64,000 bases of DNA from Candidatus Hydrothermarchaeales archaeon (GCA_036444275.1 JAZGAD010000047.1:6125-70124), one strand, 5' to 3'; numbered from the stretch's first letter, positions 8,965 through 44,868 are shown. Made by a program: numbers and translations. Notes: generated by a model from the letters alone, not told the origin.

Positions 8965-9621
8965 CTATCTTTTAGTTTCTATTGCAACGCCACGGTAACA
9001 CCTGTCCTTTATCTCACGGTCAGTTATTTTTTCACAAATACTAGCGTCTTTAGCTTCTTCTGCAACGATGCTGTAACAGGTGTCCTTATTCTCACTGTCA
9101 GTTATTTTTTCACAAATACTAGCGTCTTTAGCTTCTGCTGCAACGCCAATGTAACACGAGTCCTTTATCTCACGGTCAGTTATTTTTTCACACAGACTAA
9201 CATCTTTAGTTTCTTCTGCAACTTCACCGTAACAGATGTCCTTAACGCCCTTATCAAAATTGCCAGTTATTTTTTCACAAAGACTAACATCTTTAGTTTC
9301 TGCTGCAACGCCAATGTAACAAAAACCCTTATCAAAATTGCCAGTTATTTTTTCACAAAGACTAACATCTTTAGTTTCTACTGCAACGTCACTGTAACAG
9401 ACGTCCTTATCAATACTGTCAGTTATTTTTTCACAATCACCAGCAGTTTTGGTTAGCACTTTTTCAGTGGGCAGAGCTTTCTCTTCCGATGGAGGGGTTG
9501 TTTCTCCTGGTAGCGTTCCTGCTCCTGTTTTTTCCCCAACACATCCTCCCACTACTAGAACTAAACCAATAAGTAAAACGATTGAAACCGTTAAACCAAA
9601 CTTCTTTTCCAACCGCCCCAT
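8965..9621 (-). CDS. putative secreted lipoprotein with six tandem 26-29 aa two-cysteine repeats
   Basis: Signal peptide with a lipobox-like LVVGGC, then 6x CEKITDxxxKDxCYxxVAxETKDxS units. Confidence 0.6.
   Translation of the reverse strand: MGRLEKKFGLTVSIVLLIGLVLVVGGCVGEKTGAGTLPGETTPPSEEKALPTEKVLTKTAGDCEKITDSIDKDVCYSDVAVETKDVSLCEKITGNFDKGFCYIGVAAETKDVSLCEKITGNFDKGVKDICYGEVAEETKDVSLCEKITDREIKDSCYIGVAAEAKDASICEKITDSENKDTCYSIVAEEAKDASICEKITDREIKDRCYRGVAIETKR
9021..9500. repeat. tandem 78/87-bp DNA repeats (6 copies) encoding the two-Cys repeat units
   Basis: Copies beginning cagttatttt occur at 9021, 9099, 9177, 9264, 9342 and 9420, with a period of 78 bp and one of 87 bp. Confidence 0.75.
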
Positions 9622-9748
9622 GTTGAATACCTCCGGTCTTATATCACAACCCCGAATATTTAAACTTTACTAAAACTTTACTACATACAAGTAGCCTTAG
9701 AAATATTCAACAACTTTAAATTTCTTTAAAAAATTTACTTCATGAGGT

Positions 9749-16020: not shown

Positions 16021-16095
16021 GGGGCCGTAGGGTAGCATGGTCGATCCTCGTGGCTTCGGGAGCCATGGACCTGAGTTCAAATCTCAGCGGCCCCA
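16021..16095 (+). tRNA. tRNA-Pro (anticodon CGG)
   Basis: Cloverleaf read by hand. The acceptor GGGGCCG/CGGCCCC pairs. The T-arm is CTGAG-TTCAAAT-CTCAG. The anticodon stem GTGGC/GCCAT carries loop TTCGGGA, giving anticodon CGG. CCA is not encoded. Confidence 0.7.
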
Positions 16096-18731: not shown

Positions 18732-19879
18732 TGAGGTATGATCTCGATGAACTTATCGCCTCCTTAGTTGATGCGGAAACAGTCGAACTTGAGAATGTCA
18801 CTATAGATACTGAAGAACTGGTCCTTGAAATCAGGAGGCTCGCAGGAGCCCGAAGACCTCTACATCCACCTATTCTGAAGCCCGAGAGACTGAAATTCCA
18901 AGTTCCCAAGGGAGAGTACAGGGGAGAAGTAGTAGAAGTGCAGTTCGGGGCTACGAAGGGCGATGGCGGGACTAGAGGAAAGGCAATTAAGATAGGTGGA
19001 CAGCGAAGCCTCTACTCCTTTGAGGATGGCATGCCAAATAGACCAGTTATCGCATATGATGTCTTCGATATGCCTATGCCAAGCTTTGCTAAATCGCTGA
19101 GAGAGGAGTGGCAGGATGCCTGGGATACCCCAGCGGAATGGGCAAAGAAAGCTGTGAAGCTGGGTGCAGATATGATAACCCTCCACTTAATATCAACAGA
19201 TCCAGGGATCAAAGATACCTCTCCTAAGGAAGCTGCTAAAACCGTGGAGGACGTGCTGCAGGCCGTAGATGTTCCCTTGGTTATCGGGGGCTCAGGTAAT
19301 CCAGAGAAGGACCCTGTGCTCTTCGAGAAGGTAGCTGAAGCTGCTGAGGGGGAGCTATGCCTACTCGCCTCTGCAAACCTTGACTTGGATCATAAGAGGA
19401 TAGTGGATGCTGCCAATAAGTACCGACACAACGTCCTATCCTGGACTTCTATGAATATAACAGACCAGCAGATGCTCAATAAACTCCTCCTCGACGAAGG
19501 GCTTCCGCAGGAGCGCATGGTCCAAGATCCCACTACAGGAGCGCTCGGCTATGGTTTGGAGTACACGTATTCCATCATTGAAAGGCTTAAGCTCAGCGCA
19601 CTTAAGGGAGAGAAGATATTGCAGAGCCCTATCTCCTGCGGTGTGACAAATGCATGGGCCGCTAGAGAAGCCTGGATGAATGAGCCTAGCTGGGGTGCAC
19701 GGGAGTACCGCGGTCCCCTGTGGGAGATAGTAACTGCAGTCACTGTGCTATTGGCAGGAGCTGACATGATGATGATGCTTCACCCTGGAGCCGTGAAGGC
19801 TGTGAAGGATATAATAGGGGCTATATCTGGAGAATTGAAAACCGAGCCCCTAGCTTACGAGGAATGGATCGCTCTATAG
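18731..19879 (+). CDS. cdhD: ACDS complex delta subunit (corrinoid Fe-S protein small subunit, CdhD)
   Basis: TIM-barrel-like 382-aa protein between cdhC and cdhE, with start-stop overlap to cdhC. Confidence 0.8.
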   Translation: MRYDLDELIASLVDAETVELENVTIDTEELVLEIRRLAGARRPLHPPILKPERLKFQVPKGEYRGEVVEVQFGATKGDGGTRGKAIKIGGQRSLYSFEDGMPNRPVIAYDVFDMPMPSFAKSLREEWQDAWDTPAEWAKKAVKLGADMITLHLISTDPGIKDTSPKEAAKTVEDVLQAVDVPLVIGGSGNPEKDPVLFEKVAEAAEGELCLLASANLDLDHKRIVDAANKYRHNVLSWTSMNITDQQMLNKLLLDEGLPQERMVQDPTTGALGYGLEYTYSIIERLKLSALKGEKILQSPISCGVTNAWAAREAWMNEPSWGAREYRGPLWEIVTAVTVLLAGADMMMMLHPGAVKAVKDIIGAISGELKTEPLAYEEWIAL

Positions 19880-19886
19880 GGGGCCT

Positions 19887-21311
19887 GTGATGGTCAAGAT
19901 ATCACCACTGGAGATATACAAGCTCCTCCCAGGTACCAACTGCAAAGAGTGCGGCGAGGAGAGCTGCATGGCATTTGCCTCCAAGCTCATTGAGAGAGCG
20001 AAGGGAGTGGGAGATTGCCCACCTCTTGCAGAGGATAAATATTTAGAAAAGAGGGAGAAGCTGATAGAGCTCGTTACACCCCCGGTGAAGGAAGTAGTTG
20101 TAGGTGTTGGGGAAAGAGCAGTTGCTATCGGTGGGGAGGAAGTCATGTATCGCCATGAGCTCACCTTCTTCAACAAGACAGCCTTCTTCATAGATGTTCA
20201 CGATGAGATGAGCCAAGAGGAGTTGGCAAAGAAGGTTGAAGCCATAGACAAGTTCACCTTTGGAAGGGTCGGCCAAGAGTTGAAGCTCCAGGGGGTAGCG
20301 GTTAGGGCTAAGAGCGGGGAGCCCACGAAGTTCGGCGAGGCAGTGCTAGTAGTGACTGAGAAAACCGACCTCCCTCTAATGCTCTGCTCCTATGATCCAA
20401 AGCTGCTGGAAGTGGCTCTGGAGATAGCATTGGATAGAAGGCCTCTCATCTATGCGGCGACAAAGGATAACTGGGAGCAGGTTGTGAATCTAGCCCTGAA
20501 GCATGCCTGCCCGGTAGTTGTGTCGTCGCCAGGCGACATAGAGGGATTGATTGAGCTATCACAGAACTTGATGGAGAATGGAATAGAGGATATTGTCTTG
20601 GACATAGGCACTTATCCTGACGGTGGACAGCTTAAAGCCATGGAGGAGAATCTGGTCATGCTCAGGAGATCTGCTATAGAGGAAGAGGTAAAGCCCTTGG
20701 GATTCCCCATCTTGGGCGTGCCGATGGTAGCTGGTATGAGGGAGAAAGATCCAGTTAAGGCTGCTATGGCAGAGGTAACACTAGGTGCTTCGTTGATACT
20801 GAAATACTGCGATATCATGGTAGTTAGCTCCATGGAGGTCTGGTCCCTTTTACCACTTCTCACCATACGGCAGAATATCTACACGGATCCGAGGATGCCC
20901 CTCCAGGTGGAAGCAGGTCTCAAGATTCTAGGCAGCCCCGACGAGAATGCACCTGTCTTTCTCACCTCCAATTTCGCCTTGACCTATTACACTGTGGCAT
21001 CTGATCTGGAGGCAGCGAAGATACCATGCTATGTATTAGTAGCTGATACAGATGGACACGCAGTGGAGGTAAGCATGGCTGGTCAGAAGCTAACTGCAGA
21101 CGTGGTCAAAAACGTTCTAGAGTCTTCTAAGGTCGCGGAAAAAGTGAAGCATAAAAAGCTCATCATTCCTGGTAGAGCATCTAGGATAAGCGGAGAGATC
21201 GAAGACGCTACGGGCTGGGAGGTAATGGTGGGTCCCATAGACTCGGCCAGAATACCAAAGTTCCTGGATGAAAAGTGGAATGGCACGGCAGTCAGTAAAG
21301 GTCGTCAATAA
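19887..21311 (+). CDS. cdhE: ACDS complex gamma subunit (corrinoid Fe-S protein large subunit, CdhE)
   Basis: The N-terminal 4Fe-4S motif reads ISPLEIYKLLPGTNCKECGEESCMAFA...C, and the protein is 474 aa. Confidence 0.9.
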   Translation: MMVKISPLEIYKLLPGTNCKECGEESCMAFASKLIERAKGVGDCPPLAEDKYLEKREKLIELVTPPVKEVVVGVGERAVAIGGEEVMYRHELTFFNKTAFFIDVHDEMSQEELAKKVEAIDKFTFGRVGQELKLQGVAVRAKSGEPTKFGEAVLVVTEKTDLPLMLCSYDPKLLEVALEIALDRRPLIYAATKDNWEQVVNLALKHACPVVVSSPGDIEGLIELSQNLMENGIEDIVLDIGTYPDGGQLKAMEENLVMLRRSAIEEEVKPLGFPILGVPMVAGMREKDPVKAAMAEVTLGASLILKYCDIMVVSSMEVWSLLPLLTIRQNIYTDPRMPLQVEAGLKILGSPDENAPVFLTSNFALTYYTVASDLEAAKIPCYVLVADTDGHAVEVSMAGQKLTADVVKNVLESSKVAEKVKHKKLIIPGRASRISGEIEDATGWEVMVGPIDSARIPKFLDEKWNGTAVSKGRQ

Positions 21312-26994: not shown

Positions 26995-28446
26995 ATGACA
27001 GAAGCTAGTCTCTTAATAGTAGATGATGCGGAGGGTATACGGGAAACCCTCTCGGATATATTCAAGGAGAAGGGTTACGGTACCGATGTAGCTGAGGATG
27101 GCCGGGCAGCTATAGAGAAGGTAAAGAAGAGCTTCTTTAACGTCGTGCTCCTGGATATAAGGCTACCTGATATCTTGGGTGTAGAGGTATTGGAGAGTTT
27201 GAAGGAGATACGGCCAGATATAGAAGTGATAATGATTACAGCATATGCCTCTCTTGAGACCTCTATTGAGGCACTGAATAAGGGAGCATATGCCTATATC
27301 ATGAAGCCCCTTAACATGGGGGTGGTGATAGCTACCGTTAAGAAAGCCCTGGAGAAACAGCGCCTATCCGCAGAGAACATGTGGTTAACGGAATTCAACG
27401 AACGCATTATAAAGAATGCACCGATTGGGATCTTAACCACCGATGAAAAGGGCGATATAACGAGTGCGAATCCAGCTATTCTTGAGATTCTGGATAGCTT
27501 GGAGACGGAAAAATTGATTGGGCTTAGCGTATTAACCCTCCCAACCAGTAGGGCAATGGGCTTAGATAAGGAACTCAAGAAAGTATTGTCTGAGGGAAAG
27601 GAGATAGAGCTAGCGGGGAAGTATGTTTCTGAATCTGGAGCAGATGTTTTTCTCCATATCAGAAGCACCCCATTGAGAAACGAAAAAAGAGACATAACAG
27701 GGCTCCTAGCGATAATCGAGGACGTAACTGAGAGAAAGAAGCTTGACAGCATGAAGGATGCGTTTATCTCCAATGTCTCGCATGAGTTGAGGACTCCCCT
27801 TACATCTATCCTCACTTCTCTGGAGCTTCTTTCAAAGGAAACTGTAGAGAAGGAGAAGCGTAAGCTCTTGGAAATCTGTGATAGGAATGCTTTGAGGCTA
27901 AATCGATTGGTGGACAATCTATTGGAAGTCAGCCGGATTGAAGTAGAGACATTAGATGTTCGGACACTCGACGTTACTCGGGTAGTGGCAGAGATAATAT
28001 CAGAGCTGCAGGATTTTGCCGTTGTGAGTAAAGTTACGCTAAAATCCCTTATCGAGGATGAGTTCCTCGTAAGGGCCGATAAAAAATCACTACGGCTTGT
28101 CTTCCTGAATCTGATCAGCAATGCCATCAAGTTTAATAAAGAAGGGGGTAAGGTAACGATATCCGGCGAGCGGGAGGATTCATTTACCAGGTTCTGCGTA
28201 GAGGATACAGGCATAGGCATTCCAAGAGGAGATTTGAAAGAAATATTCAAGAGTTTCTACCAAATCGATGCAAGCATAAGGCGCAGGTACCCTGGAGCTG
28301 GTGTTGGTCTAACTATAACGAAAAACATAGTAGACGCCCATGGAGGCAAGATATGGGCTGAGAGCAAGCCCGGTAAAGGAAGCAAGTTCTGTTTCACTCT
28401 ACCCTCTGGAAGTAGAACCGGGAAGAAGATAAAAGAGGTAGGATAA
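26995..28446 (+). CDS. hybrid response-regulator receiver / PAS / histidine kinase (cytoplasmic)
   Basis: REC (LIVDDAEGIRETL...VLLDIRLPD), PAS, HisKA H-box SHELRTPLTSI and HATPase_c (G-box GVGLTI). Paralog of 35642..37279. Confidence 0.85.
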   Translation: MTEASLLIVDDAEGIRETLSDIFKEKGYGTDVAEDGRAAIEKVKKSFFNVVLLDIRLPDILGVEVLESLKEIRPDIEVIMITAYASLETSIEALNKGAYAYIMKPLNMGVVIATVKKALEKQRLSAENMWLTEFNERIIKNAPIGILTTDEKGDITSANPAILEILDSLETEKLIGLSVLTLPTSRAMGLDKELKKVLSEGKEIELAGKYVSESGADVFLHIRSTPLRNEKRDITGLLAIIEDVTERKKLDSMKDAFISNVSHELRTPLTSILTSLELLSKETVEKEKRKLLEICDRNALRLNRLVDNLLEVSRIEVETLDVRTLDVTRVVAEIISELQDFAVVSKVTLKSLIEDEFLVRADKKSLRLVFLNLISNAIKFNKEGGKVTISGEREDSFTRFCVEDTGIGIPRGDLKEIFKSFYQIDASIRRRYPGAGVGLTITKNIVDAHGGKIWAESKPGKGSKFCFTLPSGSRTGKKIKEVG

Positions 28447-28582: not shown

Positions 28583-29257
28583 CTATACCTCTTTCCCCTC
28601 TGCCAATTCTTCCAGCTCCAACGGGTGCTCATGTTCCATTTGTTCTTTACTCAGTGTTCCAGTTATCCATTGCTTTGCCATTGGAAATATATCTGGATTC
28701 AAAATCGCCGCGTATAAATGTACGACTATTACAACAGAAAATGCCAAGATGGCCTCCCACCCATGTATCAACCAAGCATAATTGACGAACTGTAGCGGTA
28801 GGACTTCCAAGGTCATATCGAATGTGAACCACATCATAAGTCCTGTTACAACTACTATGAGAGAACCAACAGCTCCGGCCCAGTAATCGAACTTCTGCTC
28901 CCAGGTATACCTCCCCATTTTTGGCATTTCGTCGGTCATCCGTAAATTGTATTTGATGTGGTGTATAGCGTCATCGAAATCTTTCCTTTGCGGCATTATG
29001 TCCTTCTTTCCTCTGTCGATCATGGTGTAATATATCACATGTATAAGGCCTGTACCGATGAATACTACTGCAGCAATTTGATGATATAAACCTCTATTAG
29101 CCGGACCCCCAAGCAAGTCAACTATACTCTGTGCCCAGGATGTGTGGGCGTATTTCAATGGGAATCCCGTCAATGCCAAGATGAAAAACGATAAAGCCCA
29201 AAGGACGTGTTGTATCCTCTGAAAGACGGTAAATCTTAAGAATTCTTCTTCGGTCAT
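28583..29257 (-). CDS. membrane b-type cytochrome (cytochrome b561/Ni-hydrogenase-type dihaem cytochrome b family)
   Basis: Four TM helices with conserved His (QRIQHVLWALSF..., HQIAAVVFIGTGLIHVIYY). It overlaps the dihaem cytochrome c gene by 4 nt. Confidence 0.7.
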   Translation of the reverse strand: MTEEEFLRFTVFQRIQHVLWALSFFILALTGFPLKYAHTSWAQSIVDLLGGPANRGLYHQIAAVVFIGTGLIHVIYYTMIDRGKKDIMPQRKDFDDAIHHIKYNLRMTDEMPKMGRYTWEQKFDYWAGAVGSLIVVVTGLMMWFTFDMTLEVLPLQFVNYAWLIHGWEAILAFSVVIVVHLYAAILNPDIFPMAKQWITGTLSKEQMEHEHPLELEELAEGKEV

Positions 29258-29823
29258 TTCGCACGCCCCCCTTTCCTACTCTTACCTAACCTCCGACTAA
29301 AGTCCAATATCTCAAAGACTACGAAGAATCCTAGCACCGCGGAGATAAGTGTTTTATAGAAGAAGTTTATCAGCCCATTCACGGAGATTGGGCCTAGAGA
29401 GTATATATCGCTTCCATGCATCGATCCCTTGCCGGCATTGGCCAATTTAACATCATGACAATCTTCCCTCGCGCATATATCAGGTCTATTCTTAGGATTA
29501 GTGGGTGAATTTGGATCGCTCTGCGGAAGGAAATACATCCAGTCCACCATGCCGTGGCAATCCGTACAAGTTGGGACACCCTCTTTTCCGAGGGCAGCCG
29601 CTTTACCATGAGGGGACTCTTGGTACGTCTTGTTCGCATATTCAAAGGTATATGCAAGGTTATACCTCGTCTTAGCCTCAGAAGGTAGGGGGCTCTTCCA
29701 TCCCTCACTCCTGTATTTCTCCATGTCCCTCTTCTGGACTTCCTGAGCCTCCACGACATGGCTCAGGGATATGAAGCCTAAAAGGAAGAGTATTAGAACC
29801 CCGCCCTTTACCAACTCTCTCAT
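29254..29823 (-). CDS. membrane-anchored dihaem c-type cytochrome
   Basis: Signal peptide, one CXXCH (CTDCH) and one CX4CH (CAREDCH), and a C-terminal TM helix. Confidence 0.65.
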   Translation of the reverse strand: MRELVKGGVLILFLLGFISLSHVVEAQEVQKRDMEKYRSEGWKSPLPSEAKTRYNLAYTFEYANKTYQESPHGKAAALGKEGVPTCTDCHGMVDWMYFLPQSDPNSPTNPKNRPDICAREDCHDVKLANAGKGSMHGSDIYSLGPISVNGLINFFYKTLISAVLGFFVVFEILDFSRRLGKSRKGGRAK

Positions 29824-29850: not shown

Positions 29851-31350
29851 TTATTCATGCAGACGCGGAGGTTCGAGGTATTCTTGGAGTACCCAAGGCG
29901 AAACGTGGTTGTGGCATCCGTTGCATGAGTTGGGCTGCACATTCCAGAGCAGATCGTCCAGGGTTTTTCCTGCGGACATAGCTTCTCGGGCTTTTTTCTT
30001 GAGCAGCTCTTCCACTTGGGTCGTGTTAAGGCCTTCTACATCTTTAGCCTCGAGGCCGTAGAAACCCAGGACGGTGTTATCCTTCTTCGCGGCTTTGTCA
30101 ACTAGGAGTTTTATGCTGACCTCTGGTTTAATGACCTTGAACCTGTGGCTCCTAATATCTCCGGGGTTAATGTTCTTTGCAGTCGGGGGCATATGGCAGC
30201 CGACGCAGTTCCCGAAGTCGTGGATAGTATGGCTCAACCCAGCGAGGCCTGGAACCCTCCTCGGCTCACCGTGGCAGGCTTTGCACAGCGCAGTGCCTGC
30301 TAGCTTGGTCTCGAACCTGCCTTCACCTTTAGAGTGAACGGTGTGGCAGTCCCAACAGGTTATTCCTGCCTTCGCATGCTCACTTATCTGCCAATCTGGA
30401 TACTGTTGGTGGTGTGATTTGGAGTCTCCACTCGGCCAGAAGCGTTTTGGTGTATCTTTTTCGCGTGTAACAGGATCGTACAGGGGTATCAAGTTCATAC
30501 CGGGTTTGTAGCCAACGGGATATCCGTATTTCGCATCGAGGGTAGAATGACCTCGGGTGTGGCATGAGCCACAAACCATGACCCCTATATCTGTTTGTGG
30601 GATCTTTGCTGGGTTTACGATCGTATCCTTCTTGTAGGGGGTATCGGCCAATATGTGGTTGCTCCCCGGTCCGTGGCAAGCTTCACATCTGGCTCCGTTA
30701 TCTATCCAAGTTGAGGCATAGGTATCCGTGACTTCATCGTAGTTTATTTGAAAGCCTGTTGTATGGCAACCAGCGCATTTATACTGCCAGATCCTTCCCT
30801 TGCTGCTCCAATAATTTTTGGGATCATCATAATCATATTTCTCCAGCCCATGGTAGTCTTGCCACTTCTGTTCCCTAATATTCCATTGAACAGGGAGTAT
30901 ATGGAATTCTCCATTGTCGAACTTCGTGAGATATCTCTGCTTCCAGGCACTACCGATGGTATAGAGCACTTCGTAGATGTGCTCTTCTCCATCAGGACCG
31001 ATAGTAGTTATATAATATTTTCCGTCCTCTGTCGACATCGTGGTGTTCTTATCCTTAACGGTCAATTCGTTGTTCTTGACAAAATCGCCGAGGACGACGT
31101 TTTCGCCGATTTCCTGTATTTTATATGGATGCAGTGTCGTTTTCCAACCGGCGTAAGTTCTCTCGTGGCATTGCTTACATTGAACAGAACCGACGTAAGT
31201 AGCCCCCTCAGTGGTGGTTGGCTTTTCTTCTCCTATTCTAAATCGTTCTAAGAAGCTGAATCCAGGCGTTAAGGTTATAAATGCAATCGTTACTACTACA
31301 AACGCGGCTACAAGCAACCGCGAGATTCTTTTTCTCTCCTCTTGCTGCAT
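29851..31350 (-). CDS. octahaem c-type cytochrome (OTR/ONR/HAO-like class by size and haem spacing)
   Basis: Eight CXXCH motifs (CKQCH, CAGCH, CEACH, CGSCH, CWDCH, CKACH, CVGCH, CNGCH), an N-terminal signal/anchor, and 499 aa. Confidence 0.85.
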   Translation of the reverse strand: MQQEERKRISRLLVAAFVVVTIAFITLTPGFSFLERFRIGEEKPTTTEGATYVGSVQCKQCHERTYAGWKTTLHPYKIQEIGENVVLGDFVKNNELTVKDKNTTMSTEDGKYYITTIGPDGEEHIYEVLYTIGSAWKQRYLTKFDNGEFHILPVQWNIREQKWQDYHGLEKYDYDDPKNYWSSKGRIWQYKCAGCHTTGFQINYDEVTDTYASTWIDNGARCEACHGPGSNHILADTPYKKDTIVNPAKIPQTDIGVMVCGSCHTRGHSTLDAKYGYPVGYKPGMNLIPLYDPVTREKDTPKRFWPSGDSKSHHQQYPDWQISEHAKAGITCWDCHTVHSKGEGRFETKLAGTALCKACHGEPRRVPGLAGLSHTIHDFGNCVGCHMPPTAKNINPGDIRSHRFKVIKPEVSIKLLVDKAAKKDNTVLGFYGLEAKDVEGLNTTQVEELLKKKAREAMSAGKTLDDLLWNVQPNSCNGCHNHVSPWVLQEYLEPPRLHE

Positions 31351-31606: not shown

Positions 31607-32395
31607 TCAGTCCTTTTTCTTACTCTTATAGGCTTCAAAGACTTCCAAGAACGGTTTAAATAGGTCTATCGGCACCGGGAATATGACGTTTGAGCCCCGT
31701 TCTCCTGAGATCTCGACTAGGGATTGCAGATATCTCAATTGGAGTGCCATTGGATGGGGTCCAATAATCTCTGCTGCTTCCGCGAGTTTTTCTGCTGCTT
31801 GGAATTCTCCCAAGGCGTTGATCACCTTTGCCCTTCTCTCCCTCTCTGCCTCGGCTTGCCTCGCCATAGCCCTCTTCATGACTTCTGGAAGCTCGACATC
31901 CTTGACCTCAACACATGATACCTTCACTCCCCAGGGTTCTGTATGTGAATCTATAATCCTTTGAAGAGTATAATTGATCTTATCCCTCTCTGCGAGCAGT
32001 TCGTCCAGCTCATGTTGCCCAATAACACCCCGTAAGGTTGTCTGAGATATCAGCGTGGTAGATGCCACGTAGTCCGCCACCTCTACTGTGGATTTCACTG
32101 CATCCATTACGTTGAAGTATATAACGGCATCGACTTTGGTCGTCACATTGTCCTTGGTGATAACGTCTTGGGCCGAGACATTTTCTGTAACTACCCTCAG
32201 ATCTACCCTGAAGATCTTATCCACAAAGGGTATTATAAAGACTAAGCCCGGTCCTCTTGCATCTTGCAACCTCCCCATCCTGAAGAGAACCCCTCGCTCG
32301 TACTCTTTAAATACCCATATCGACATCTTGAGAAGTACCGAGACTACCAAAACTACGAGTATAGTAATTATAGTAATATACGTCCCTACAGGCAT
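31607..32395 (-). CDS. SPFH/band-7 (stomatin/prohibitin-like) membrane protein
   Basis: N-terminal TM plus a stomatin core (FKEYERGVLFRMGRL...VVTENVSAQDVITKDNVTTKVDAVIYF). Confidence 0.85.
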   Translation of the reverse strand: MPVGTYITIITILVVLVVSVLLKMSIWVFKEYERGVLFRMGRLQDARGPGLVFIIPFVDKIFRVDLRVVTENVSAQDVITKDNVTTKVDAVIYFNVMDAVKSTVEVADYVASTTLISQTTLRGVIGQHELDELLAERDKINYTLQRIIDSHTEPWGVKVSCVEVKDVELPEVMKRAMARQAEAERERRAKVINALGEFQAAEKLAEAAEIIGPHPMALQLRYLQSLVEISGERGSNVIFPVPIDLFKPFLEVFEAYKSKKKD

Positions 32396-32686
32396 TAATT
32401 TTCACCCTACAAAAAATTGTCAGTACTCCTATATATTATTTGTCCTACCTACTGCCTAGCTAGGGCAATTCGTTCTCTACCGTGCCTCAGATTGCAGAAA
32501 TCATTTTATAGATTGAACTTCAAATATTATACACATATATCCTACCAATGGAGAGATAAAAAGATTGGAGGAGAGATCAAGGATCACATAGCCTTTATCT
32601 GCAGGAAAAAATGTATGGTGTGGGGGGTCCAAAATAAGAGGAATTGGTATGGTAAACACCTTACCTCAAGTTCATAGGCGTAATAG

Positions 32687-35227
32687 ATGATTGTGAGGTC
32701 CAAAAGTCGATATGAAATACCGAAAATGGAGAAAATGGATTGGATGAACAAAGAACAACAAAAAGCGGCGCTCATTTTGGTAGTGGCATTTATTGGTAGT
32801 GCACTTACAGTAAACGGAACGCTTACAGCGGCGGAAGAAAAATATAGTACGATATTAAGCGCTGTGAGAACAAACGAAACGATAATCATAGATGGGCAGT
32901 TAAAGGAGTCTTCATGGAATGAGACAAAGACACTGATCATCCCAGTGGTGGATGGAAAGGTCGGGGATGTAGATGTGGAGATGAAGGCATTATACGATAC
33001 TGACTATATCTACATGTACATCGTATGGCCTGATCCGACCCAAAGCGATGCTTTATTCTGGGGATATAATGGCACTGCTTGGAACCCCCCAAATAAAAAT
33101 ACAGAGGATATTTTCACGATCTTCTGGAATATAAGGGACTCGGTTGAGGGATATGATATAGCTGGATGCGCCATTACTTGCCACGCAAATAGGATGCATA
33201 CCAATACCCCCGAAGAAAGACTCGATTACTGGAAATGGAAGGCAGAGAAAGGCAACCCCTCCGGCTATATGTGGGATGGATTCCTAGACGATATCGTGGT
33301 TATCGGGGAGAAGATATATCCCGGTTTTTCTAGGACCTTTATGATCGAGAAGGCATGGCATTCACACAAGCTAGATGAAACATCGGGTGACTATGTGGAG
33401 GAGAGAAAGAACGCGATTATCGATGAGAGAGGCAATTTCATTGGGCCGAGATATTATGAACCTGACGCAAGGGGCGAAGATGCGAAACACATCACGATGG
33501 AGGAGATCCTTAGGGACGAGGCCGTGGAATTTTTGAATTTAACAAAACTGAACGATGGAAGAGAGATCTCGATCGGCTTCAAAGTGCCTGTATACATCTC
33601 CGAAAAACCGACAGGAAGTGCTAGAGATATAAGCGCCAAAGGGGTTTATTATGACGGGAAGTGGCATCTGGAATTCAAGAGAAAATTGCAGACCGGGCAC
33701 GACGACGATGTCCTGTTCGATATCGCGAAGACCTATCGTTTCAGCATAGCTGTGAATGACGATTCTCACGGATCCGCCAACGAGGGTTATGGCCAAGGAC
33801 ACAGCATAAGCATGCTGGCGCGAACCCTAGAATTTGGCGGGATTGGTTCTGAAGAGATAACCCAACTGGCACTAATCCGCGATTATCTTCAGACCGCCAA
33901 GGCATATACCGGGCGCGGGGAATCGGGAATGGCGCTTTCAGAGGTCGATCATGCGTTGGCGATTTTCAATGCGATCAGGGGAGCAGTCGCCGACGAAGAC
34001 CCAGAACTCTACATGGACATTAGAAAGAGATTTGTAGAGGCCAAGAGGAATCCCTCGATCGATAACCTTGATGTCGTGCTTCAAGGCATCGAGGTTGCTA
34101 CATTAACTTTGCAGGGAAAGAGAGAGCCGCCAGAAGCGCCGTGGAATGTAAAGCTCCTAGTTCTCTGGGGGAGCGTACAACTTTACGTCTTTGTCTTTAT
34201 ATCGATATTTGTTCTCTATCCCCTCTACAAAACGATACAAACAACTAGAATACCGGAAATGCGCTATTTCGGCATCTTCCTATTTATAGTCATCCTCCCC
34301 CTATTTCTTGAAGGCGTTGGGAGGTTTGGGGTCCTTTTCAAGATCAGATTTTTGCAGAACTTCAGTTTCACAACAAATGAATACATAACCTTGCTCTGGG
34401 CGATAGGCATGTTCATAGCCTTGCTCATAGCCAAAGTTGGATTCACCGAAATAGATGAGACCATTCGCTCATTAAAATATTACAGCGCTGAAGTCGAAAC
34501 TAAGATGGAGGAGTTGAGAAAATCGCAAGAGCAACTGGTCAAGTCAGAGAGGATGGCTTCCATAGGGCAACTGGCAGCGAGTGTTGGCCACGAGTTGAGA
34601 AATCCTCTTGGAGTGATCAAGAACGTGAGCTACTATCTCAGCATGGCCCTAGCCGAGAAAGATGAAAAGGTGAAGAAGCACTTAAATATCCTAGAAAGGG
34701 AACTAGATACCTCCAACAAAATCATCACCGACTTATTGGACTTTTCACGGGGGGAGATAGAACCCACTTTTGGGGAAGCCAACATCAATGCGATCCTTAA
34801 GGATACATTGGCCAGGGCATCGGTACCTGACAATGTCAAAGTGGAAACTTATCTGGCCGATTTACCCTCAATGAGAGTAGATGGAGAGCAATTACAGCGG
34901 GTGTTCTTGAATATGATTTCAAACGCTGTTCATGCGATGCCCGATGGTGGTAAATTGATTATCAGAACCAAAAGTAAGGGCAACTCCGTAGAGATAGAGT
35001 TCGAGGACACCGGCAAAGGGATTTCGAAAGAGGATATAAAGAAGATCTTCGAACCGCTCTTTACCACTAAGGCAAAAGGGATTGGGTTGGGGTTAGCGAT
35101 CTGTAAACAAATCATCGATGGGCATGGGGGCACCATCGATGCGGTGAGCGCTGTAGACCAGGGGGCAACTTTTATCATCAAACTACCCGTGATGGAAGTA
35201 GAGGAAGATGAAGAAAAGGAAAACTAG
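32687..35227 (+). CDS. membrane sensor histidine kinase with an extracytoplasmic DOMON/EB_dh-like putative haem-binding domain
   Basis: Signal peptide, a DGxLxExxW-type DOMON/EB_dh start (IDGQLKESSWNE), the conserved GCAITCHANRMH (CX3CH), a helical linker, about 4 TM helices, HisKA (VGHELRNPL) and HATPase_c. The start may be MNKEQQ at 32744. Confidence 0.85.
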   Translation: MIVRSKSRYEIPKMEKMDWMNKEQQKAALILVVAFIGSALTVNGTLTAAEEKYSTILSAVRTNETIIIDGQLKESSWNETKTLIIPVVDGKVGDVDVEMKALYDTDYIYMYIVWPDPTQSDALFWGYNGTAWNPPNKNTEDIFTIFWNIRDSVEGYDIAGCAITCHANRMHTNTPEERLDYWKWKAEKGNPSGYMWDGFLDDIVVIGEKIYPGFSRTFMIEKAWHSHKLDETSGDYVEERKNAIIDERGNFIGPRYYEPDARGEDAKHITMEEILRDEAVEFLNLTKLNDGREISIGFKVPVYISEKPTGSARDISAKGVYYDGKWHLEFKRKLQTGHDDDVLFDIAKTYRFSIAVNDDSHGSANEGYGQGHSISMLARTLEFGGIGSEEITQLALIRDYLQTAKAYTGRGESGMALSEVDHALAIFNAIRGAVADEDPELYMDIRKRFVEAKRNPSIDNLDVVLQGIEVATLTLQGKREPPEAPWNVKLLVLWGSVQLYVFVFISIFVLYPLYKTIQTTRIPEMRYFGIFLFIVILPLFLEGVGRFGVLFKIRFLQNFSFTTNEYITLLWAIGMFIALLIAKVGFTEIDETIRSLKYYSAEVETKMEELRKSQEQLVKSERMASIGQLAASVGHELRNPLGVIKNVSYYLSMALAEKDEKVKKHLNILERELDTSNKIITDLLDFSRGEIEPTFGEANINAILKDTLARASVPDNVKVETYLADLPSMRVDGEQLQRVFLNMISNAVHAMPDGGKLIIRTKSKGNSVEIEFEDTGKGISKEDIKKIFEPLFTTKAKGIGLGLAICKQIIDGHGGTIDAVSAVDQGATFIIKLPVMEVEEDEEKEN

Positions 35228-35582
35228 CATTTTGGTAGTAGATGACGATATAGGCACGTGTGAAACCTTGGCCGATATTCTGACTGCGAAAGGATATAAT
35301 GTAACTACTGCAGAGAGCGGAATTGAAGCGGTTGAGAAACTCAAGGGGGAGCTCTTCAAAGTTATCCTCATGGATATAAAGATGATGGGAATAAACGGCA
35401 TAGAGACAATTAGGGAGATCAAGAAGATAGTATATCCTGAGGTGGCGATAATTATGATGACGGCCTACGTCGCCGAGGCCCTCGTAACAGAAGCTTTGAG
35501 GGAAGGGGCATATGCCGTTGTCTACAAACCTTTGGATATTGAGAGGATAATAAAGCTCATTGAAAGTGCAACAGTTAAGTAG
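35208..35582 (+). CDS. single-domain CheY-like response regulator
   Basis: Receiver with ILVVDDD...ILMDIKMMGINGIE...MMTAY. It overlaps the end of the upstream kinase. Confidence 0.85.
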   Translation: MKKRKTSILVVDDDIGTCETLADILTAKGYNVTTAESGIEAVEKLKGELFKVILMDIKMMGINGIETIREIKKIVYPEVAIIMMTAYVAEALVTEALREGAYAVVYKPLDIERIIKLIESATVK

Positions 35583-35641
35583 GATACAAATGGCCGTTAC
35601 ATTATGTAAATGTGAGATATTTAGGGAGAAGATGACTCGGA

Positions 35642-37279
35642 ATGTCCGAAGAAAGCAGCATCTTGATAATTGACGATGATAAAGGGATGCGCGAGACCCT
35701 TACAGACATACTCCAGGTGAAGGGCTACAAGACGGAGAGCGCAAAGGACGGAGAAGCGGCCTTGGATAAGCTGAAGGAGAAGTCCTTCAATGTAGCGCTC
35801 GTCGACATAAAGCTCCCGGATATTTCAGGCACAGAGGTATTGAAAAAACTCAAAGAGATTCAGCCGGATACGATAGTGATCATGATCACTGCTTTCGCTT
35901 CTCTCAATACTTCGATTAAGGCTTTGAAAGAGGGGGCATATGGCTATATCATGAAACCCTTGAATATGGATGAATTATTCGCTACCATCGGAGAAGGTCT
36001 CGAGAAACAGCGGTTGCAAAAAGAATTAAAAAAGTACTCTGAGCAACTGGAAGAGATGGTGAAAGCTAGGACTGAGGAATTACAGAATGCCTATGAAGAA
36101 CTCAAAGGCCTCGCCATCGAGAGAGCCCGTAATATCGAAGTAATACAAGAGCAATCGAGGGAACTCAAGGAAGCTAAGGACTTCTTGGATAACGTGATAG
36201 ACAGTAGCGCTGACGCGATAATCACTACTGGGTTGGACGGTACGATAACCTCTTTTAGCAGGGGTGCTGAGGAGCTCTATAAATACAAGGCTAAAGAGGT
36301 TATAGGCAAGCCGGCCCTCTCCCTTTACCCAAAGGAGCTTCGAGAAGAGAGGAGGGCTGGGTTGGATACGCTTCTTAAGGGCGAGACTATACGGAATATG
36401 AGAACCAGGATATACAATGCCGATGGAGAGCTTGTAGATATAAGTCTCTCTCTTTCCCGGCTCAGAGATATCTCCGGAAAGGCTATTGGTACTGTCGGAG
36501 TCTCAAAGGATATATCCAAGGAGATAGAGGGAGAAAAACGTCTGACGGAGGCATATGAGAGGCTTGTCGAATTGGATAAGATGAAGGACGAGTTCCTATC
36601 CAATATTTCACATGAGCTACGCACACCTATAACCTCGATTGTGACCTCCCTAGAGTTATTAGAGGAAGAAAGTCTACCGGGGGAGAGGGAGAAACTTCTG
36701 GAGGTATCTAAGAGGAATGTTTGGAGGCTGGATAATCTCGTCGGCAACCTACTGGAGTTCAGCCGCTTAGGAACGCAGAAGCTGCAAATGCAACCATTGA
36801 ACGCAAGTGTGCTGGTTCGTGAGCTTATAGCTGAAATGGAGAACTTTGCGGCAAGCAATGAAGTGGAGGTTAAGTCCTTTCTAAAGGAAGAAACCATGAT
36901 CATGGCTGATAAAAAGTTCGTAGGGCCTATATTCGGGAATCTCATTGGCAATGCCATAAAATTCAATAAGCGGGGGGGCAAGGTTAGGGTATCGGCGGAG
37001 GAAGAGAATTCGTGGATAAAGTTTTGCGTAGAAGATACCGGTGTAGGAATCCCCAAAGAAGGCTTGGACAAGGTATTCGATAGATTCTACCAGATCGATG
37101 CAAGCATCAGACGCAGGTACCCAGGCACAGGCTTAGGGCTGACCATAGCCAAGGAGATGGTGGAGCGCCAGGGAGGCATGATATGGGCTGAAAGCGAATT
37201 GGGAAAGGGTAGCAGGTTCTATTTCACTCTGCCCTCGGAACCTAGAACTAGAACCAGAAAAAAGATAAACGAGAAATGA
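35642..37279 (+). CDS. hybrid response-regulator receiver / coiled-coil / PAS / histidine kinase
   Basis: REC about 70% identical to the 26995 protein, PAS, SHELRTPITSI and HATPase_c. Confidence 0.85.
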   Translation: MSEESSILIIDDDKGMRETLTDILQVKGYKTESAKDGEAALDKLKEKSFNVALVDIKLPDISGTEVLKKLKEIQPDTIVIMITAFASLNTSIKALKEGAYGYIMKPLNMDELFATIGEGLEKQRLQKELKKYSEQLEEMVKARTEELQNAYEELKGLAIERARNIEVIQEQSRELKEAKDFLDNVIDSSADAIITTGLDGTITSFSRGAEELYKYKAKEVIGKPALSLYPKELREERRAGLDTLLKGETIRNMRTRIYNADGELVDISLSLSRLRDISGKAIGTVGVSKDISKEIEGEKRLTEAYERLVELDKMKDEFLSNISHELRTPITSIVTSLELLEEESLPGEREKLLEVSKRNVWRLDNLVGNLLEFSRLGTQKLQMQPLNASVLVRELIAEMENFAASNEVEVKSFLKEETMIMADKKFVGPIFGNLIGNAIKFNKRGGKVRVSAEEENSWIKFCVEDTGVGIPKEGLDKVFDRFYQIDASIRRRYPGTGLGLTIAKEMVERQGGMIWAESELGKGSRFYFTLPSEPRTRTRKKINEK

Positions 37280-37308
37280 CAACAAGGTATTGGAAGGGCT
37301 GTTAAGGA

Positions 37309-39759
37309 ATGCAAAGGAGAGCGAGGGACTTTTATCAATTAAGCTTGTTTAGTAGGGCTAAACGTAAGGATACGGCTATTTACATACCTAAAATTATACT
37401 TATAGTGATAATACTCGCTAGTTTTGCAGTTGTAGCAGGAGAGGTAGTGGAAAGACAGAGCACCATTTTGACAGCTGAGAGGGTCACTGAGCCGGTCGAG
37501 GTAGATGGGCTAGCTACTGAGAGTGCTTGGGATAGCGCGAGGCCGCTGGTGGTCACGGTCCAAGATGGTAGTATAGGGAGGATAGACGTATACCTCAAGG
37601 CATTATACGATTCTGACTACATCTACATCTATGCCACGTGGCCTGATCCAACTGAGAGTGTTAGTAAGCGTATGTGGGGCTTCAATGGCATAAACTGGTC
37701 TTTTTCTGACGACGAAGACAGATTTTCGGTCTTCTGGAATATAGACGATTCCGTCAAGGGCTTCAATGTCGGTGGTTGTGCGATGCTCTGTCACGGTGAT
37801 AGGATGCATGCTAATGCAGAGGGTGAGAAGGCTGACTCTTGGCACTGGAAGAGCAGTAGAACCAATCCAGTTGGTTATGCAGACGACAAATACGTAGACT
37901 CCCACGTTGTGCCTTACGAGGGTGGAGAGAAAATGGTAGGTCGCCATGGAGACCAAGCAGTCAGCGGGGGTTACATGCGTAACATCAATGACGAGGGCAC
38001 TAAGCCACTCTACTATGAGCCCTTGCCTGAGGATGAGTTGGATGCCTTGTTCCTATTGGAGGAGGAAGTCGAGGATGGTGAGGCAGTATTGTTGGATGAG
38101 GCGGAGCTTAAGTCGGGTATAGTTGTACCTGGTTATATCCTTAGTAAGCCAAGTGGCAGCAGAGGCGACATCGATTCTAAAGGTGTATGGCAAAACGAGA
38201 GGTGGGCTGTGGAGTTTCGTAGGAAGCTTGTGACTGGGCACGATGATGATGTCCAGTTTGATACTAGTAGGACGTATCGTTTTGGTATAGCTGTGATGGA
38301 CAATACGGGTGGCTTTGAGGGCTTCGGAAAGGGTCATAGCTTTGACTTGGGTGCCAGGACGCTTGAGTTCGGCGGCATTGGGAGCGAAGAGGTGACTCAG
38401 TTGGTCTTGATACGGGACTACCTAGTTACTGCCAAAGCACATGTTAGAGATGGAAAACCAGGATTGGCACTTTCAGAAGCCAACGATGGTCTCACATTGT
38501 ACAACGAGATCCGCGACGAGGTTGCAGACGTGGATCCAGAGCTCTACATAACTATAAAAAATGCATTCGTGGATTCTGTGAGGAATCCCACACTAAGCAA
38601 TATAGACATCCTGATAAGAAACATCGACGATGTTGTGCTAACTTTCCAGGGAAAGAGGCAACCAGCTGAACCGACGTGGAATCTAAAGCTCCTCATCGCA
38701 TGGGGGCGGATACAGCTCTATGTGTTCGTCGTGCTCTCAATACTTGTAACATACCCCATCTATAAGACAGTAAAGACGAGCGCGAGACCAGAATTACGCC
38801 ATCTGAGTCTCTTCTTGCTGATAGTAATGGCTCCGATATTCCTCGAGGGAGTGGGCCGCTTTGGTGTTCTTGCTAAGATTCATTTTCTGCAGAAGTTCAG
38901 TTTCACGACAAATGAATATATAACAATGATATGGGCGATAGGCATGTTCATAGCTTTGTATGTCGCTAAGATAGGATTCAACGAAGTAGATGATACCATC
39001 AAGTCGCTGGGTTACTACAGCACTGAACTCGAGACCAAGATGGAGGAGCTGAGGAAATCACAGGCAAAACTTTTAGGAGCAGAGAAATTGGCTTCTATAG
39101 GGCAGCTGACTGCAAGCATCGGGCATGAGCTGCGTAATCCGTTGGGCGTGATTAAGAACATAAGCTACTATCTCGACATGAAATTAGGCGATAGGGATGA
39201 AAAAATTAAGAAACATCTGCGGCTCTTGGATGAGGAGCTTGTCAGGTCAAATGAGATAATAAGCGATCTTTTGGACTTCTCTAGGGGTATAGAGCCGACT
39301 CTTCACGATGTTGACATCAATCCAGTCGTGGGGGAAGCCCTATTGAGAGCCACGATACCAGGTAACATCGAAGTGAGCACAAATTTTGAGGATGCATCAC
39401 CTAAGGTCTCCGTGGATAGCGAGCATATAGTGAGGGTATTTATGAATATAATCTCGAATGCAGTTCAGGCGATGCCAGAAGGTGGGAGTTTAAGGATAAG
39501 AACAGTGAAAAAGGATGATTTCATAGGAATAGAGATCACGGACACAGGCGTTGGAATCCCGAAAGAAGATGTAGGGAAAGTCTTTGAACCTTTATTTAGT
39601 ACGAAGGCGAAGGGGATAGGCCTGGGCCTAGCCATTAGTAGGCAGATCATAGAGAGACATGGCGGTAGCATTGAAGTAGAGAGCGTCCTAGATAGTGGGA
39701 CTACATTTATTGTAAAACTCCCGATAAAAAGGAGTCAGGGCGATGAAGGGGAAGACTAG
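37309..39759 (+). CDS. membrane sensor histidine kinase, paralog of 32687..35227, with the same DOMON/EB_dh-like domain and CX3CH motif
   Basis: VDGLATESAWDS..., GGCAMLCHGDRMH, the same TM/linker/HisKA/HATPase arrangement, and a colinear alignment by eye. Confidence 0.85.
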   Translation: MQRRARDFYQLSLFSRAKRKDTAIYIPKIILIVIILASFAVVAGEVVERQSTILTAERVTEPVEVDGLATESAWDSARPLVVTVQDGSIGRIDVYLKALYDSDYIYIYATWPDPTESVSKRMWGFNGINWSFSDDEDRFSVFWNIDDSVKGFNVGGCAMLCHGDRMHANAEGEKADSWHWKSSRTNPVGYADDKYVDSHVVPYEGGEKMVGRHGDQAVSGGYMRNINDEGTKPLYYEPLPEDELDALFLLEEEVEDGEAVLLDEAELKSGIVVPGYILSKPSGSRGDIDSKGVWQNERWAVEFRRKLVTGHDDDVQFDTSRTYRFGIAVMDNTGGFEGFGKGHSFDLGARTLEFGGIGSEEVTQLVLIRDYLVTAKAHVRDGKPGLALSEANDGLTLYNEIRDEVADVDPELYITIKNAFVDSVRNPTLSNIDILIRNIDDVVLTFQGKRQPAEPTWNLKLLIAWGRIQLYVFVVLSILVTYPIYKTVKTSARPELRHLSLFLLIVMAPIFLEGVGRFGVLAKIHFLQKFSFTTNEYITMIWAIGMFIALYVAKIGFNEVDDTIKSLGYYSTELETKMEELRKSQAKLLGAEKLASIGQLTASIGHELRNPLGVIKNISYYLDMKLGDRDEKIKKHLRLLDEELVRSNEIISDLLDFSRGIEPTLHDVDINPVVGEALLRATIPGNIEVSTNFEDASPKVSVDSEHIVRVFMNIISNAVQAMPEGGSLRIRTVKKDDFIGIEITDTGVGIPKEDVGKVFEPLFSTKAKGIGLGLAISRQIIERHGGSIEVESVLDSGTTFIVKLPIKRSQGDEGED

Positions 39760-40108
39760 AGTATTGGTAGTGGACGACGACGCTGGAACCTGCGAAACCT
39801 TATCAGACATCCTCTTGGAAACTACCTGTCAAGTTACTATGGCACGCGATGGATTTGAGGCCATAGAGAAGATGAAGGGGGAAAGCTTCGATGTTGTTCT
39901 TATGGATATAAAGATGCCAGGCATAAACGGGGTGGAGACTTACAAAGAGATGAAGAAGATAAATCCAGAGGCGAAAGTGGTTATGATGACAGCCTACGTT
40001 GGGGACGATCTAGTGGCAGAGGCCCTGAAGGAGGGGGCATCTACTGTGCTCTATAAGCCTTTGGATATAGGTAAGATGATAGACATCATAAAGGGAAAAT
40101 CCACATAA
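39743..40108 (+). CDS. single-domain CheY-like response regulator (paralog of 35208..35582)
   Basis: Receiver with VLVVDDDAGTCETL...VLMDIKMPGINGVE...MMTAY. Confidence 0.85.
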   Translation: MKGKTRVLVVDDDAGTCETLSDILLETTCQVTMARDGFEAIEKMKGESFDVVLMDIKMPGINGVETYKEMKKINPEAKVVMMTAYVGDDLVAEALKEGASTVLYKPLDIGKMIDIIKGKST

Positions 40109-40403
40109 AAAGGAAGGAGAGGGTGTATAATTGGCACCAAATGATGGTAAGGTTTATATACGCACCAGTAACTGCGATAAAACGGTGCCGAAATGAAGGT
40201 GCAAATAGACTGCAAGTTTGTGGAGATCGTGAAAAAAGAGGACTATGGCTATCTGAATTGCAATCTCCGGAGGTCTACGACCTTCAGCTGTCCCACCTGT
40301 TTGGAAGGTTTGATGGTCAGCAAGCGATAAACAAATTAAAGCTCCAGAAAAATAGAGCGATCCAAGCCGGAGTCCGTTAGACGAGAGAAGTCCTGTAGCA
40401 ATT

Positions 40404-44795: not shown

Positions 44796-44868
44796 GGGCC
44801 CGTAGCTCAGTTGGAAGAGTGCTCGCTTGGCATGCGAGCGGCCCCGGGTTCAAGTCCCGGCGGGTCCA
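44796..44868 (+). tRNA. tRNA-Ala (anticodon GGC)
   Basis: GGGCCCGTAGCTCAGTTGG...: the acceptor has the G3:U70 Ala identity pair, the anticodon stem CTCGC/GCGAG carries loop TTGGCAT, and the T-arm is CCGGG-TTCAAGT-CCCGG. No encoded CCA. Confidence 0.85.

Follow-up and report, generated by a model that had tools for sequence, protein, structure and literature searches.

Two archaeal sensor kinases with a predicted extracytoplasmic haem domain of the EB_dh family beside a multihaem cytochrome operon

A 64,000-nucleotide (nt) stretch of the genome of a hydrothermal-vent archaeon, a Candidatus Hydrothermarchaeales member (GCA_036444275.1 JAZGAD010000047.1:6125-70124, hereafter the window) encodes, at positions 32,687 to 40,108, two membrane-bound sensor histidine kinases, HK1 and HK2, each carrying an extracytoplasmic domain of the EB_dh family. 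Considering this domain, an invariant C-x3-C-H motif inside it and the adjoining multihaem cytochrome operon, both proteins are probably external haem (redox) sensors. The fuller reading, that HK1 and HK2 are extracytoplasmic haem redox sensor kinases tied to extracellular electron transfer, is one for which we judge the sequence and model evidence to be evenly balanced. To our knowledge, how microbes with insoluble or partner-bound acceptors sense the external electron sink is largely unknown, nothing is known of it for archaea, and the phylum Hydrothermarchaeota has no cultured members. If the reading is true, the EB_dh/DOMON-like domain would be a third fold among external haem sensors, beside PAS and Cache, and an experimentally tractable two-component system would be at hand in an uncultured phylum. 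The domain, of ~300 amino acids (aa), is a compact, recombinant-friendly candidate with clear targets for point mutation, which makes electron-sink sensing testable.

The original prediction for this stretch, made by a model from the sequence alone, had drawn five open reading frames (ORFs) here, all on the plus strand, and had taken the kinases for colinear paralogues, each followed by an overlapping single-domain receiver (REC), with one soluble hybrid of REC, PAS and histidine kinase (HK) domains between the two copies and another upstream of the cytochrome operon. This layout was recovered in full, with overlaps of 20 nt between HK1 and RR1 and 17 nt between HK2 and RR2. The features of the cluster, with transmembrane helices abbreviated TM, are as follows.

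32687..35227 (+), HK1 sensor histidine kinase, 846 aa: TM1, EB_dh, four-helix bundle, three TM, HisKA, HATPase_c
32849..33841 (+), HK1 EB_dh-like beta-sandwich, extracytoplasmic, aa ~55-385 (Pfam E 1.1e-26; boundaries by alignment to the HK2 model)
33167..33184 (+), HK1 C-A-I-T-C-H motif, aa 161-166, predicted covalent haem attachment site
33800-33802 (+), HK1 His372, candidate axial ligand together with Met170
33842..34453 (+), HK1 extracytoplasmic four-helix bundle and three-TM transducer block
34565..35191 (+), HK1 HisKA and HATPase_c transmitter; phospho-acceptor His635 at 34589-34591
35208..35582 (+), RR1, single-domain CheY-like receiver (Response_reg only), overlapping HK1
35642..37279 (+), RPH_mid, soluble REC-PAS-HisKA-HATPase hybrid (by Pfam)
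37309..39759 (+), HK2 sensor histidine kinase, 816 aa, same architecture as HK1
37456..38376 (+), HK2 EB_dh-like beta-sandwich, extracytoplasmic, aa ~50-356
37777..37794 (+), HK2 C-A-M-L-C-H motif, aa 157-162
38335-38337 (+), HK2 His343, candidate axial ligand together with Met166
38377..38979 (+), HK2 four-helix bundle (aa 357-450) and three TM helices (aa 457-557)
39100..39729 (+), HK2 HisKA and HATPase_c transmitter; phospho-acceptor His606 at 39124-39126
39743..40108 (+), RR2, single-domain CheY-like receiver (Response_reg only), overlapping HK2

The sensor domain and its predicted haem site

A DOMON/EB_dh-like domain had been proposed for the external regions on the strength of an N-terminal DGxLxExxW hallmark, and this D-G...E..W motif proved at least 90% conserved in the family. 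Pfam EB_dh (PF09459) matched at 94.7 bits in HK1 and 111.6 bits in HK2, against a gathering score of 33.3 that was also exceeded in 10 relatives, whereas DOMON (PF03351) and CBM9 (PF06452) matched HK1 and HK2 only below their gathering scores. A family profile built from 73 sequences, namely the two window fragments and stand-alone homologues, matched NxrC of the Kuenenia nitrite oxidoreductase at E 4e-14 and EbdC at E 0.034, the latter over the default reporting threshold of 0.001, with CBM9 modules matched weakly, and a single-sequence PDB search with the sensor domain gave a weak match to NxrC only. The structure prediction suggested as a check supports the same fold: in an AlphaFold2 model of HK2 residues 1-607, calculated from a 101-sequence alignment (mean pLDDT 89.9, pTM 0.81), the domain forms a beta-sandwich that superposes on EbdC and NxrC. 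Judged by profile and model together, the assignment of the sensor domain to the EB_dh family and fold is correct.

Three other identities were considered. A CBM9 carbohydrate-binding module was rejected given the much weaker matches and the haem-type residues at the ligand positions. The domain does not belong with the haem-c PAS or Cache_heme sensors, to which its likeness is functional only, since its fold is the EB_dh beta-sandwich; PAS-family Pfam matches on the sensor-bearing proteins fall in cytoplasmic parts only. The gamma subunit of an enzyme was likewise rejected, because a scan of 20 ORFs in the 22-51 kb part of the window showed no gene for a molybdopterin alpha or FeS beta subunit; near the related loci none was recognised among the selected ORFs scanned.

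The haem site itself had been overlooked in the original prediction, which mentioned neither the invariant C-x3-C-H nor the conserved ligand-type residues close to the canonical axial positions. Counted over the homologues covering the region (96-101 sequences), Cys157, Cys161 and His162 (HK2 numbering) were present in all 96, position 166 was Met in 63, Lys in 15 and His in 13 (91 of 96), and position 343 was His in 90 and Lys in 4 (94 of 97). In these alignments positions 166 and 343 vary almost solely among residues able to ligate haem iron. The haem b of NxrC and EbdC is ligated by Met and Lys (PMC8387239), and both variable positions come within 2-3 residues of the sites extrapolated for these ligands from partial hidden Markov model alignments: position 166 lies 10 residues before a D-x-W-H-W-K strand, as the known Met lies 8 before N-x-W-x-W-K, and position 343 falls ~3 residues from the known Lys. 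Moreover, in the stand-alone homologues the position-343 His stands 13-14 residues from the C terminus, like Lys201 in the 214-residue EbdC chain.

In the AlphaFold2 model, C-x3-C-H sits in the external domain where a short predicted helix (aa 152-159) ends, as haem-c attachment sites usually do. When a haem domain is exported in unfolded form, led by a Sec-type anchor, the haem is as a rule added covalently once the domain is outside the cell, so that unfolded export and extracellular haem loading may explain how a branch of a haem-b family gained a Cys pair. An atypical CWXXCH has been proposed as a haem-c site in two members of the EB_dh family, Dsui_0143 and Pseudomonas stutzeri NirB (PMC3884062), and CXXXCH has been counted as a haem motif in metagenome-assembled genomes (MAGs) of Hydrothermarchaeota (PMC6759336); the supplement of the latter study lists CXXXCH coding sequences, and the terms 'histidine kinase', 'sensor' and 'ethylbenzene' are absent from it. 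Taken together, sequence and model predict that the sensor domain binds haem, likely covalently through C-x3-C-H. One haem could be held by His162 and His343 with Met166 as an alternative ligand, or two haems could be present. Confirmation of a CX3CH haem would reveal a lineage of a haem-b family that carries covalent haem in a domain assembled outside the cell.

Both window kinases appear to share with EbdC (2ivf_C; Met108 and Lys201) and NxrC (7b04_C; Met155 and Lys305) ligand-type residues at about the Met and Lys haem-ligand positions. However, EbdC and NxrC are soluble electron-transfer subunits with non-covalent haem b, docked on a Mo/FeS enzyme, whereas HK1 and HK2 have a Sec-type membrane anchor, are fused to a transducer and kinase, contain the invariant C-x3-C-H, with His in place of Lys as the C-terminal ligand-type residue, and have no molybdoenzyme genes nearby among the scanned ORFs. 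Dsui_0143 (Azospira suillum) and NirB (cytochrome c-552, P. stutzeri) resemble them in combining the EB_dh family with a CX3CH-type motif (C-W-x-x-C-H; PMC3884062), but differ in being soluble periplasmic redox proteins with an extra CXXCH and no signalling fusion.

Transducer module, transmitter and receivers

The domain order originally described, running from a signal peptide through a ~400-aa external region and a four-TM block to HisKA and HATPase, required two corrections. The order held, as did the N-terminal hydrophobic segment (a TM helix or signal-anchor) and the size of the external region, but hydropathy and the AlphaFold2 model agree on three rather than four TM helices after that region, and the ~400 aa comprise an EB_dh beta-sandwich of ~300 aa and a separate four-helix bundle of ~90 aa. 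The bundle plus three-TM segment had no match to a Pfam family, on which ground a known transporter or channel was rejected for the three-TM block.

A phmmer search with the bundle plus three-TM segment against 1.84 billion cluster representatives (E ≤ 0.001) found 38 proteins, ~18 of which also carried an N-terminal C-x3-C-H and D-x-W-x-W, with a few more being fragments of such proteins. Behind the complete unit of EB_dh, bundle and three TM helices, the outputs comprised HisKA-HATPase (in the window), PAS-HK, PAS-GAF-PAS-HK, PAS-DUF835, PAS alone, a coiled coil alone, HisKA_3-HATPase (in Desulfobacterales) and GAF-HK-REC-REC. To find a single external unit in front of so many kinds of cytoplasmic transmitter is the signature of a sensor input module, and this one, of EB_dh, bundle and three TM helices, is rare. 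It also defines an uncharacterised membrane transducer module, four-helix bundle plus three TM helices, that has no Pfam family. Four-helix-bundle sensor kinases are known in LytS (with its partner XylFII), QseE (with QseG) and NarQ; the likeness to HK1 and HK2 is one of fold only, and the bundle described here differs in leading into three TM helices instead of one and in belonging to no Pfam family.

Several further observations concern this transducer. It carries the motifs F-L-E-G-V-G-R and F-S-F-T-T-N-E-Y (within HK2 aa 357-557). It also occurs without EB_dh (P0140-P0144, P0146), in a ~500-aa group whose external region is all-helical and which lacks a cytoplasmic output, and in another protein that runs on into GAF and HD-GYP domains. 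Members of ~645 aa (L008 8422-10419, L010 4417-6351; P0002, P0008, P0011, P0013-P0015) possess the full EB_dh, bundle and three-TM unit, lack a kinase and end in a conserved coiled coil, E-R-T-x-D-L ... W-Q-x-x-T-x-G-R-E-x-x-M-x-E-L-K; their signalling may depend on a partner. In L003 (1675-4554) and P0126, PAS and DUF835 (a domain of unknown function) take the place of the kinase.

As predicted, HK1 and HK2 are colinear, with 54% identity over 795 aa. Identity was 71% in the DHp region, 65.5% in the three-TM block and lowest in EB_dh (49%), a pattern compatible with diverged inputs serving similar partners. RR1 and RR2 were 60% identical, the two hybrids RPH_up and RPH_mid 44%, and the REC domains of the hybrids were 40-45% identical to RR1 and RR2. 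Pfam recognised HisKA and HATPase_c in both kinases, the H-box H-E-L-R-N-P stands at aa 635 in HK1 and aa 606 in HK2, and the ATP-binding-domain motifs NAVQAMPEGG, DTGVGI, FEPLF and GIGLGLA are readable in the kinase sequences, as are the DD, the Asp of LMDIKM, the Thr and the Lys in the receivers. By these sequence features, HK1 and HK2 qualify as classical HisKA/HATPase_c two-component kinases with adjacent receiver genes. The described archaeal haem or redox kinases are the cytoplasmic PAS/GAF proteins MsmS and RdmS of Methanosarcina acetivorans only, which sense redox, MsmS through haem (PMC6944256); in contrast to HK1 and HK2, with their classical HisKA, adjacent receivers and external sensor, these have no phosphorylatable His and no REC partners.

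That a DOMON-type sensor domain on an archaeal kinase was not recognised as a described architecture, as the original prediction put it, is consistent with the literature searched. Neither full-text literature searches nor a term look-up in the 2018 census of archaeal two-component systems turned up a description of a kinase with an EB_dh or DOMON sensor, and automatic annotation tags such proteins as PF09459, 'ethylbenzene dehydrogenase-related', consistent with an architecture that is present in databases and, as far as searched, not discussed. As judged from sequence and model, HK1 and HK2 would represent external sensor kinases of the haem-based kind in which both the sensor fold and the transducer module are new.

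The cytochrome neighbourhood and competing readings

Upstream of HK1 lies a minus-strand cytochrome operon, which the second soluble hybrid approaches from the far side.

26995..28446 (+), RPH_up, second soluble REC-PAS-HisKA-HATPase hybrid, convergent with the cytochrome operon
28583..29257 (-), membrane cytochrome b of FdnI/HydC type (Ni_hydr_CYTB)
29254..29823 (-), p188, 188-aa protein anchored in the membrane, carrying a single CXXCH and a single CX4CH
29851..31350 (-), octahaem c-type cytochrome, 8 CXXCH, N-terminal anchor
31607..32395 (-), Band 7/SPFH protein, divergent from HK1, syntenic in L004 and L005

Conservation of the kinase-cytochrome neighbourhood in related genomes had been named beforehand as a test of the prediction, and it was found in three locus types. 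In the HK1 type, cytochrome b, p188, the octahaem cytochrome and Band 7 are kept at 82-91% protein identity in the Hydrothermarchaeales MAG loci L004 and L005. In L006 and L007, an EB_dh-PAS-HK paralogue is followed by a REC-winged-helix regulator (DUF7347/HTH_20) and then by two pentahaem cytochromes, while in the Desulfobacterales locus L015 an 8-CXXCH class I-type cytochrome and a monohaem cytochrome c lie directly upstream. Thus, c-type cytochrome genes of different families stand at most two genes from the kinase in all three types, and the sequence evidence for a kinase-cytochrome association is suggestive. The closest solved relative of the octahaem cytochrome is OcwA (6i5b, E 3e-21), a surface terminal reductase of Thermincola. 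Among the stand-alone relatives of the sensor domain, P0078 is fused to a cytochrome c7 domain and others carry PKD, CARDB, fn3 or Por-secretion domains, indicating cell-surface proteins; an extracellular EBDH-like haem protein has also been noted in a Methanoperedens Borg (PMC9605863).

The small protein p188 returned no Pfam or NCBIfam match. It has a signal or anchor at each end, is 89-90% identical in L004 and L005 and lies between the octahaem cytochrome and cytochrome b, and is probably an undescribed membrane-anchored c-type cytochrome subunit.

From these elements a mechanism can be proposed. Each kinase would be exported by its N-terminal hydrophobic segment, and the ~300-aa EB_dh sandwich would bind haem outside the membrane, most likely covalently through Cys-x3-Cys-His, with axial ligation drawing on His162, Met166 and His343 (HK2 numbering). 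This haem would exchange electrons with external acceptors or with an extracytoplasmic cytochrome network, including the adjoining OcwA-like octahaem cytochrome, c-type membrane protein and cytochrome b module, and so report redox poise. A redox-linked change, possibly a ligand switch, would be relayed through the four-helix bundle and the three-helix membrane block, whose last TM helix is predicted to continue straight into the DHp helix, and would set autophosphorylation of the H-box His. The phosphoryl group would then pass to RR1 and RR2, and probably also to the REC domains of the two REC-PAS-HK proteins, in a multi-kinase relay with a final output presumably encoded outside the cluster; the L006/L007 locus, unlike the window cluster, does encode a DNA-binding output, immediately upstream of the cytochrome genes.

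A more ambitious combination of these elements is offered tentatively and falls short of an even judgement. The system would be the first in which a dedicated sensor haem tells a cell whether its extracellular electron-transfer chain, an external mineral or a partner is oxidised or reduced. CX3CH would hold that haem, of c type, inside a DOMON-like sandwich, surface multihaem cytochromes would be its direct electron-exchange partners, and it would signal by a His/Met/His redox-linked ligand switch. The signal would act on an undescribed bundle plus three-TM transducer, which in Hydrothermarchaeota would have been recombined with a range of outputs and which Desulfobacterales would have acquired.

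Several points weigh against the haem redox reading. The cofactor is predicted from sequence and fold, C-x3-C-H differs from the canonical CXXCH, and three conserved ligand-type residues for two axial positions would allow one or two haems of b or c type. No ccm genes were found among the window ORFs scanned, which lie before ~51 kb; the adjacent 8-CXXCH gene indicates that the organism matures cytochromes c. A multihaem gene was absent from the fetched flanks of 6 of the 11 longer related loci, and the window cluster encodes no DNA-binding response regulator. Moreover, the present data do not separate a redox signal from a diffusible haem ligand.

The last point leads to the main rival, which we consider unlikely, if less so than the others: haem is bound, but the cue is a diffusible ligand (NO, CO, O2 or sulfide) that settles on the iron or displaces a distal ligand, with the cytochrome neighbourhood reflecting co-regulated respiration instead of direct electron exchange. 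External haem-c sensors are known with PAS folds (Geobacter GSU0582 and GSU0935) and Cache folds (Cache_heme preprints, 2026), and they detect ligand or redox, so that a ligand-sensing HK1 or HK2 would resemble the Geobacter haem-c PAS sensors and the Cache_heme NO receptors. Like these, the window kinases are proposed to hold a c-type haem in the extracytoplasmic domain of a transmembrane signalling protein, and the hosts, as proposed here, are organisms using extracellular electron acceptors. However, the known domains have a PAS or Cache fold with canonical CXXCH and are bacterial, mostly on methyl-accepting chemotaxis proteins, whereas HK1 and HK2 combine a DOMON-like sandwich, CX3CH, archaeal kinases and a separate four-helix bundle after the sensor. 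His162, Met/Lys/His at 166 and His/Lys at 343 would fit a displaceable sixth ligand, and CO is a plausible cue since genes for CO dehydrogenase/acetyl-CoA synthase (CODH/ACS) lie in the same window and Hydrothermarchaeota have been proposed as carboxydotrophs (PMC6775978). Against this, the kinases have no adjacent gas-metabolism gene, the recurrent neighbours are multihaem cytochromes, and the relatives of the domain are electron-transfer subunits or a cytochrome c7 fusion.

It is improbable that the sandwich is haem-free and binds a glycan, like its CBM9 relatives, or a metal through the Cys/His cluster, acting as an envelope or nutrient sensor: C-x3-C-H could serve as a metal site or disulfide, but at the two candidate axial positions nearly every sequence has one of the haem ligands Met, Lys or His, and this ligand-type conservation makes a non-haem ligand unlikely. 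Similarly improbable is an incidental clustering with cytochromes, in which the cluster would be one of many lineage-expanded two-component paralogues answering an unrelated cue; several MAGs do hold 2-3 family members and many loci have no cytochrome neighbours in their flanks, yet c-type genes of different cytochrome families occur within two genes of the kinase in three locus types, and the synteny of the cytochrome operon is kept at 82-91% protein identity.

Operon structure, distribution and history

The overlaps between kinase and receiver genes, together with remaining gaps of only 59 and 29 nt, make a single operon the simplest interpretation, and by sequence the five plus-strand genes HK1-RR1-RPH_mid-HK2-RR2 look like one transcription unit. 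A small ORF right after RR2 (40123-40380, +; 85 aa, or 79 aa in the NCBI record) has no family match and could be a sixth operon gene. The ATG of HK1 at 32687 is not kept in two orthologous loci, where the homologues start at the equivalent of Met20 (MNKEQQK...), so the true start of HK1 is probably Met20, at 32744.

A scan of one genome per species found 17 loci, 15 in archaeal MAGs and 2 in Desulfobacterales MAGs. The archaeal MAGs are labelled Hydrothermarchaeota, Hydrothermarchaeales, 'Methanobacteriota', 'Thermoplasmata' and 'archaeon BMS3Abin16', several contain 2-3 family copies, and the homologue sets are metagenome-derived, with many fragments. HK1 of the window is 90% identical to its orthologue in L004 and 87% to the one in L005, which assigns the window to a Hydrothermarchaeales archaeon. 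A neighbour-joining tree of the sensor domains, which is rough and has no support values, split the archaeal sequences into an HK1-type and an HK2-type clade, each with several MAGs, with the bacterial pair sister to both; separate clades spanning several MAGs suggest, on this sequence evidence, that HK1 and HK2 are ancient paralogues. In addition, L005 has HK1-RR1-REC-PAS-HK and no HK2, while in L001, L002 and L011, too, a REC-PAS-HK gene forms a pair with an HK2-type sensor gene that comes after it. The window cluster therefore looks like two old modules side by side, HK1-RR1 and REC-PAS-HK with an HK2-type kinase. A tandemly duplicated phosphorelay had been predicted; the paralogues are indeed adjacent, but a recent tandem duplication was rejected because they belong to different old clades and the HK1 module of L005 lacks HK2. 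Two tandem family members also lie on a 2.5-kb contig of 'Methanobacteriota archaeon J060' (L017 19-2520), showing that adjacent paralogues are not unique to the window.

Upstream of HK1, a stretch of ~230 nt (window 32440-32686; L004 9307-9964; L005 9692-9976) is near-identical base for base in three genomes whose flanking proteins are merely 82-91% identical. It contains no conserved ORF, the ATG-GAG-AGA frame being interrupted by TAA in the window, and matched no Rfam family in a whole-window scan; it may be a leader or regulatory region common to the divergent Band 7/cytochrome genes. In L004, an insertion of ~330 bp lies between Band 7 and HK1 (~9360-9690; columns 57-383 of alignment A4), which is absent from the window and L005.

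Archaeal genes elsewhere in the window include those for fibrillarin, Nop56/58, archaeosine tRNA-guanine transglycosylase, TFB and CODH/ACS. The CODH/ACS subunit genes, at 17364-21311 (+) upstream of the cluster, encode the CdhC beta subunit and two matches to the CdhD delta-subunit family, of which the second has an extra Fe-S domain, in agreement with the carboxydotrophic, Wood-Ljungdahl metabolism proposed for Hydrothermarchaeota. The Rfam scan recorded two tRNA genes only, at 16021-16095 and 44796-44868.

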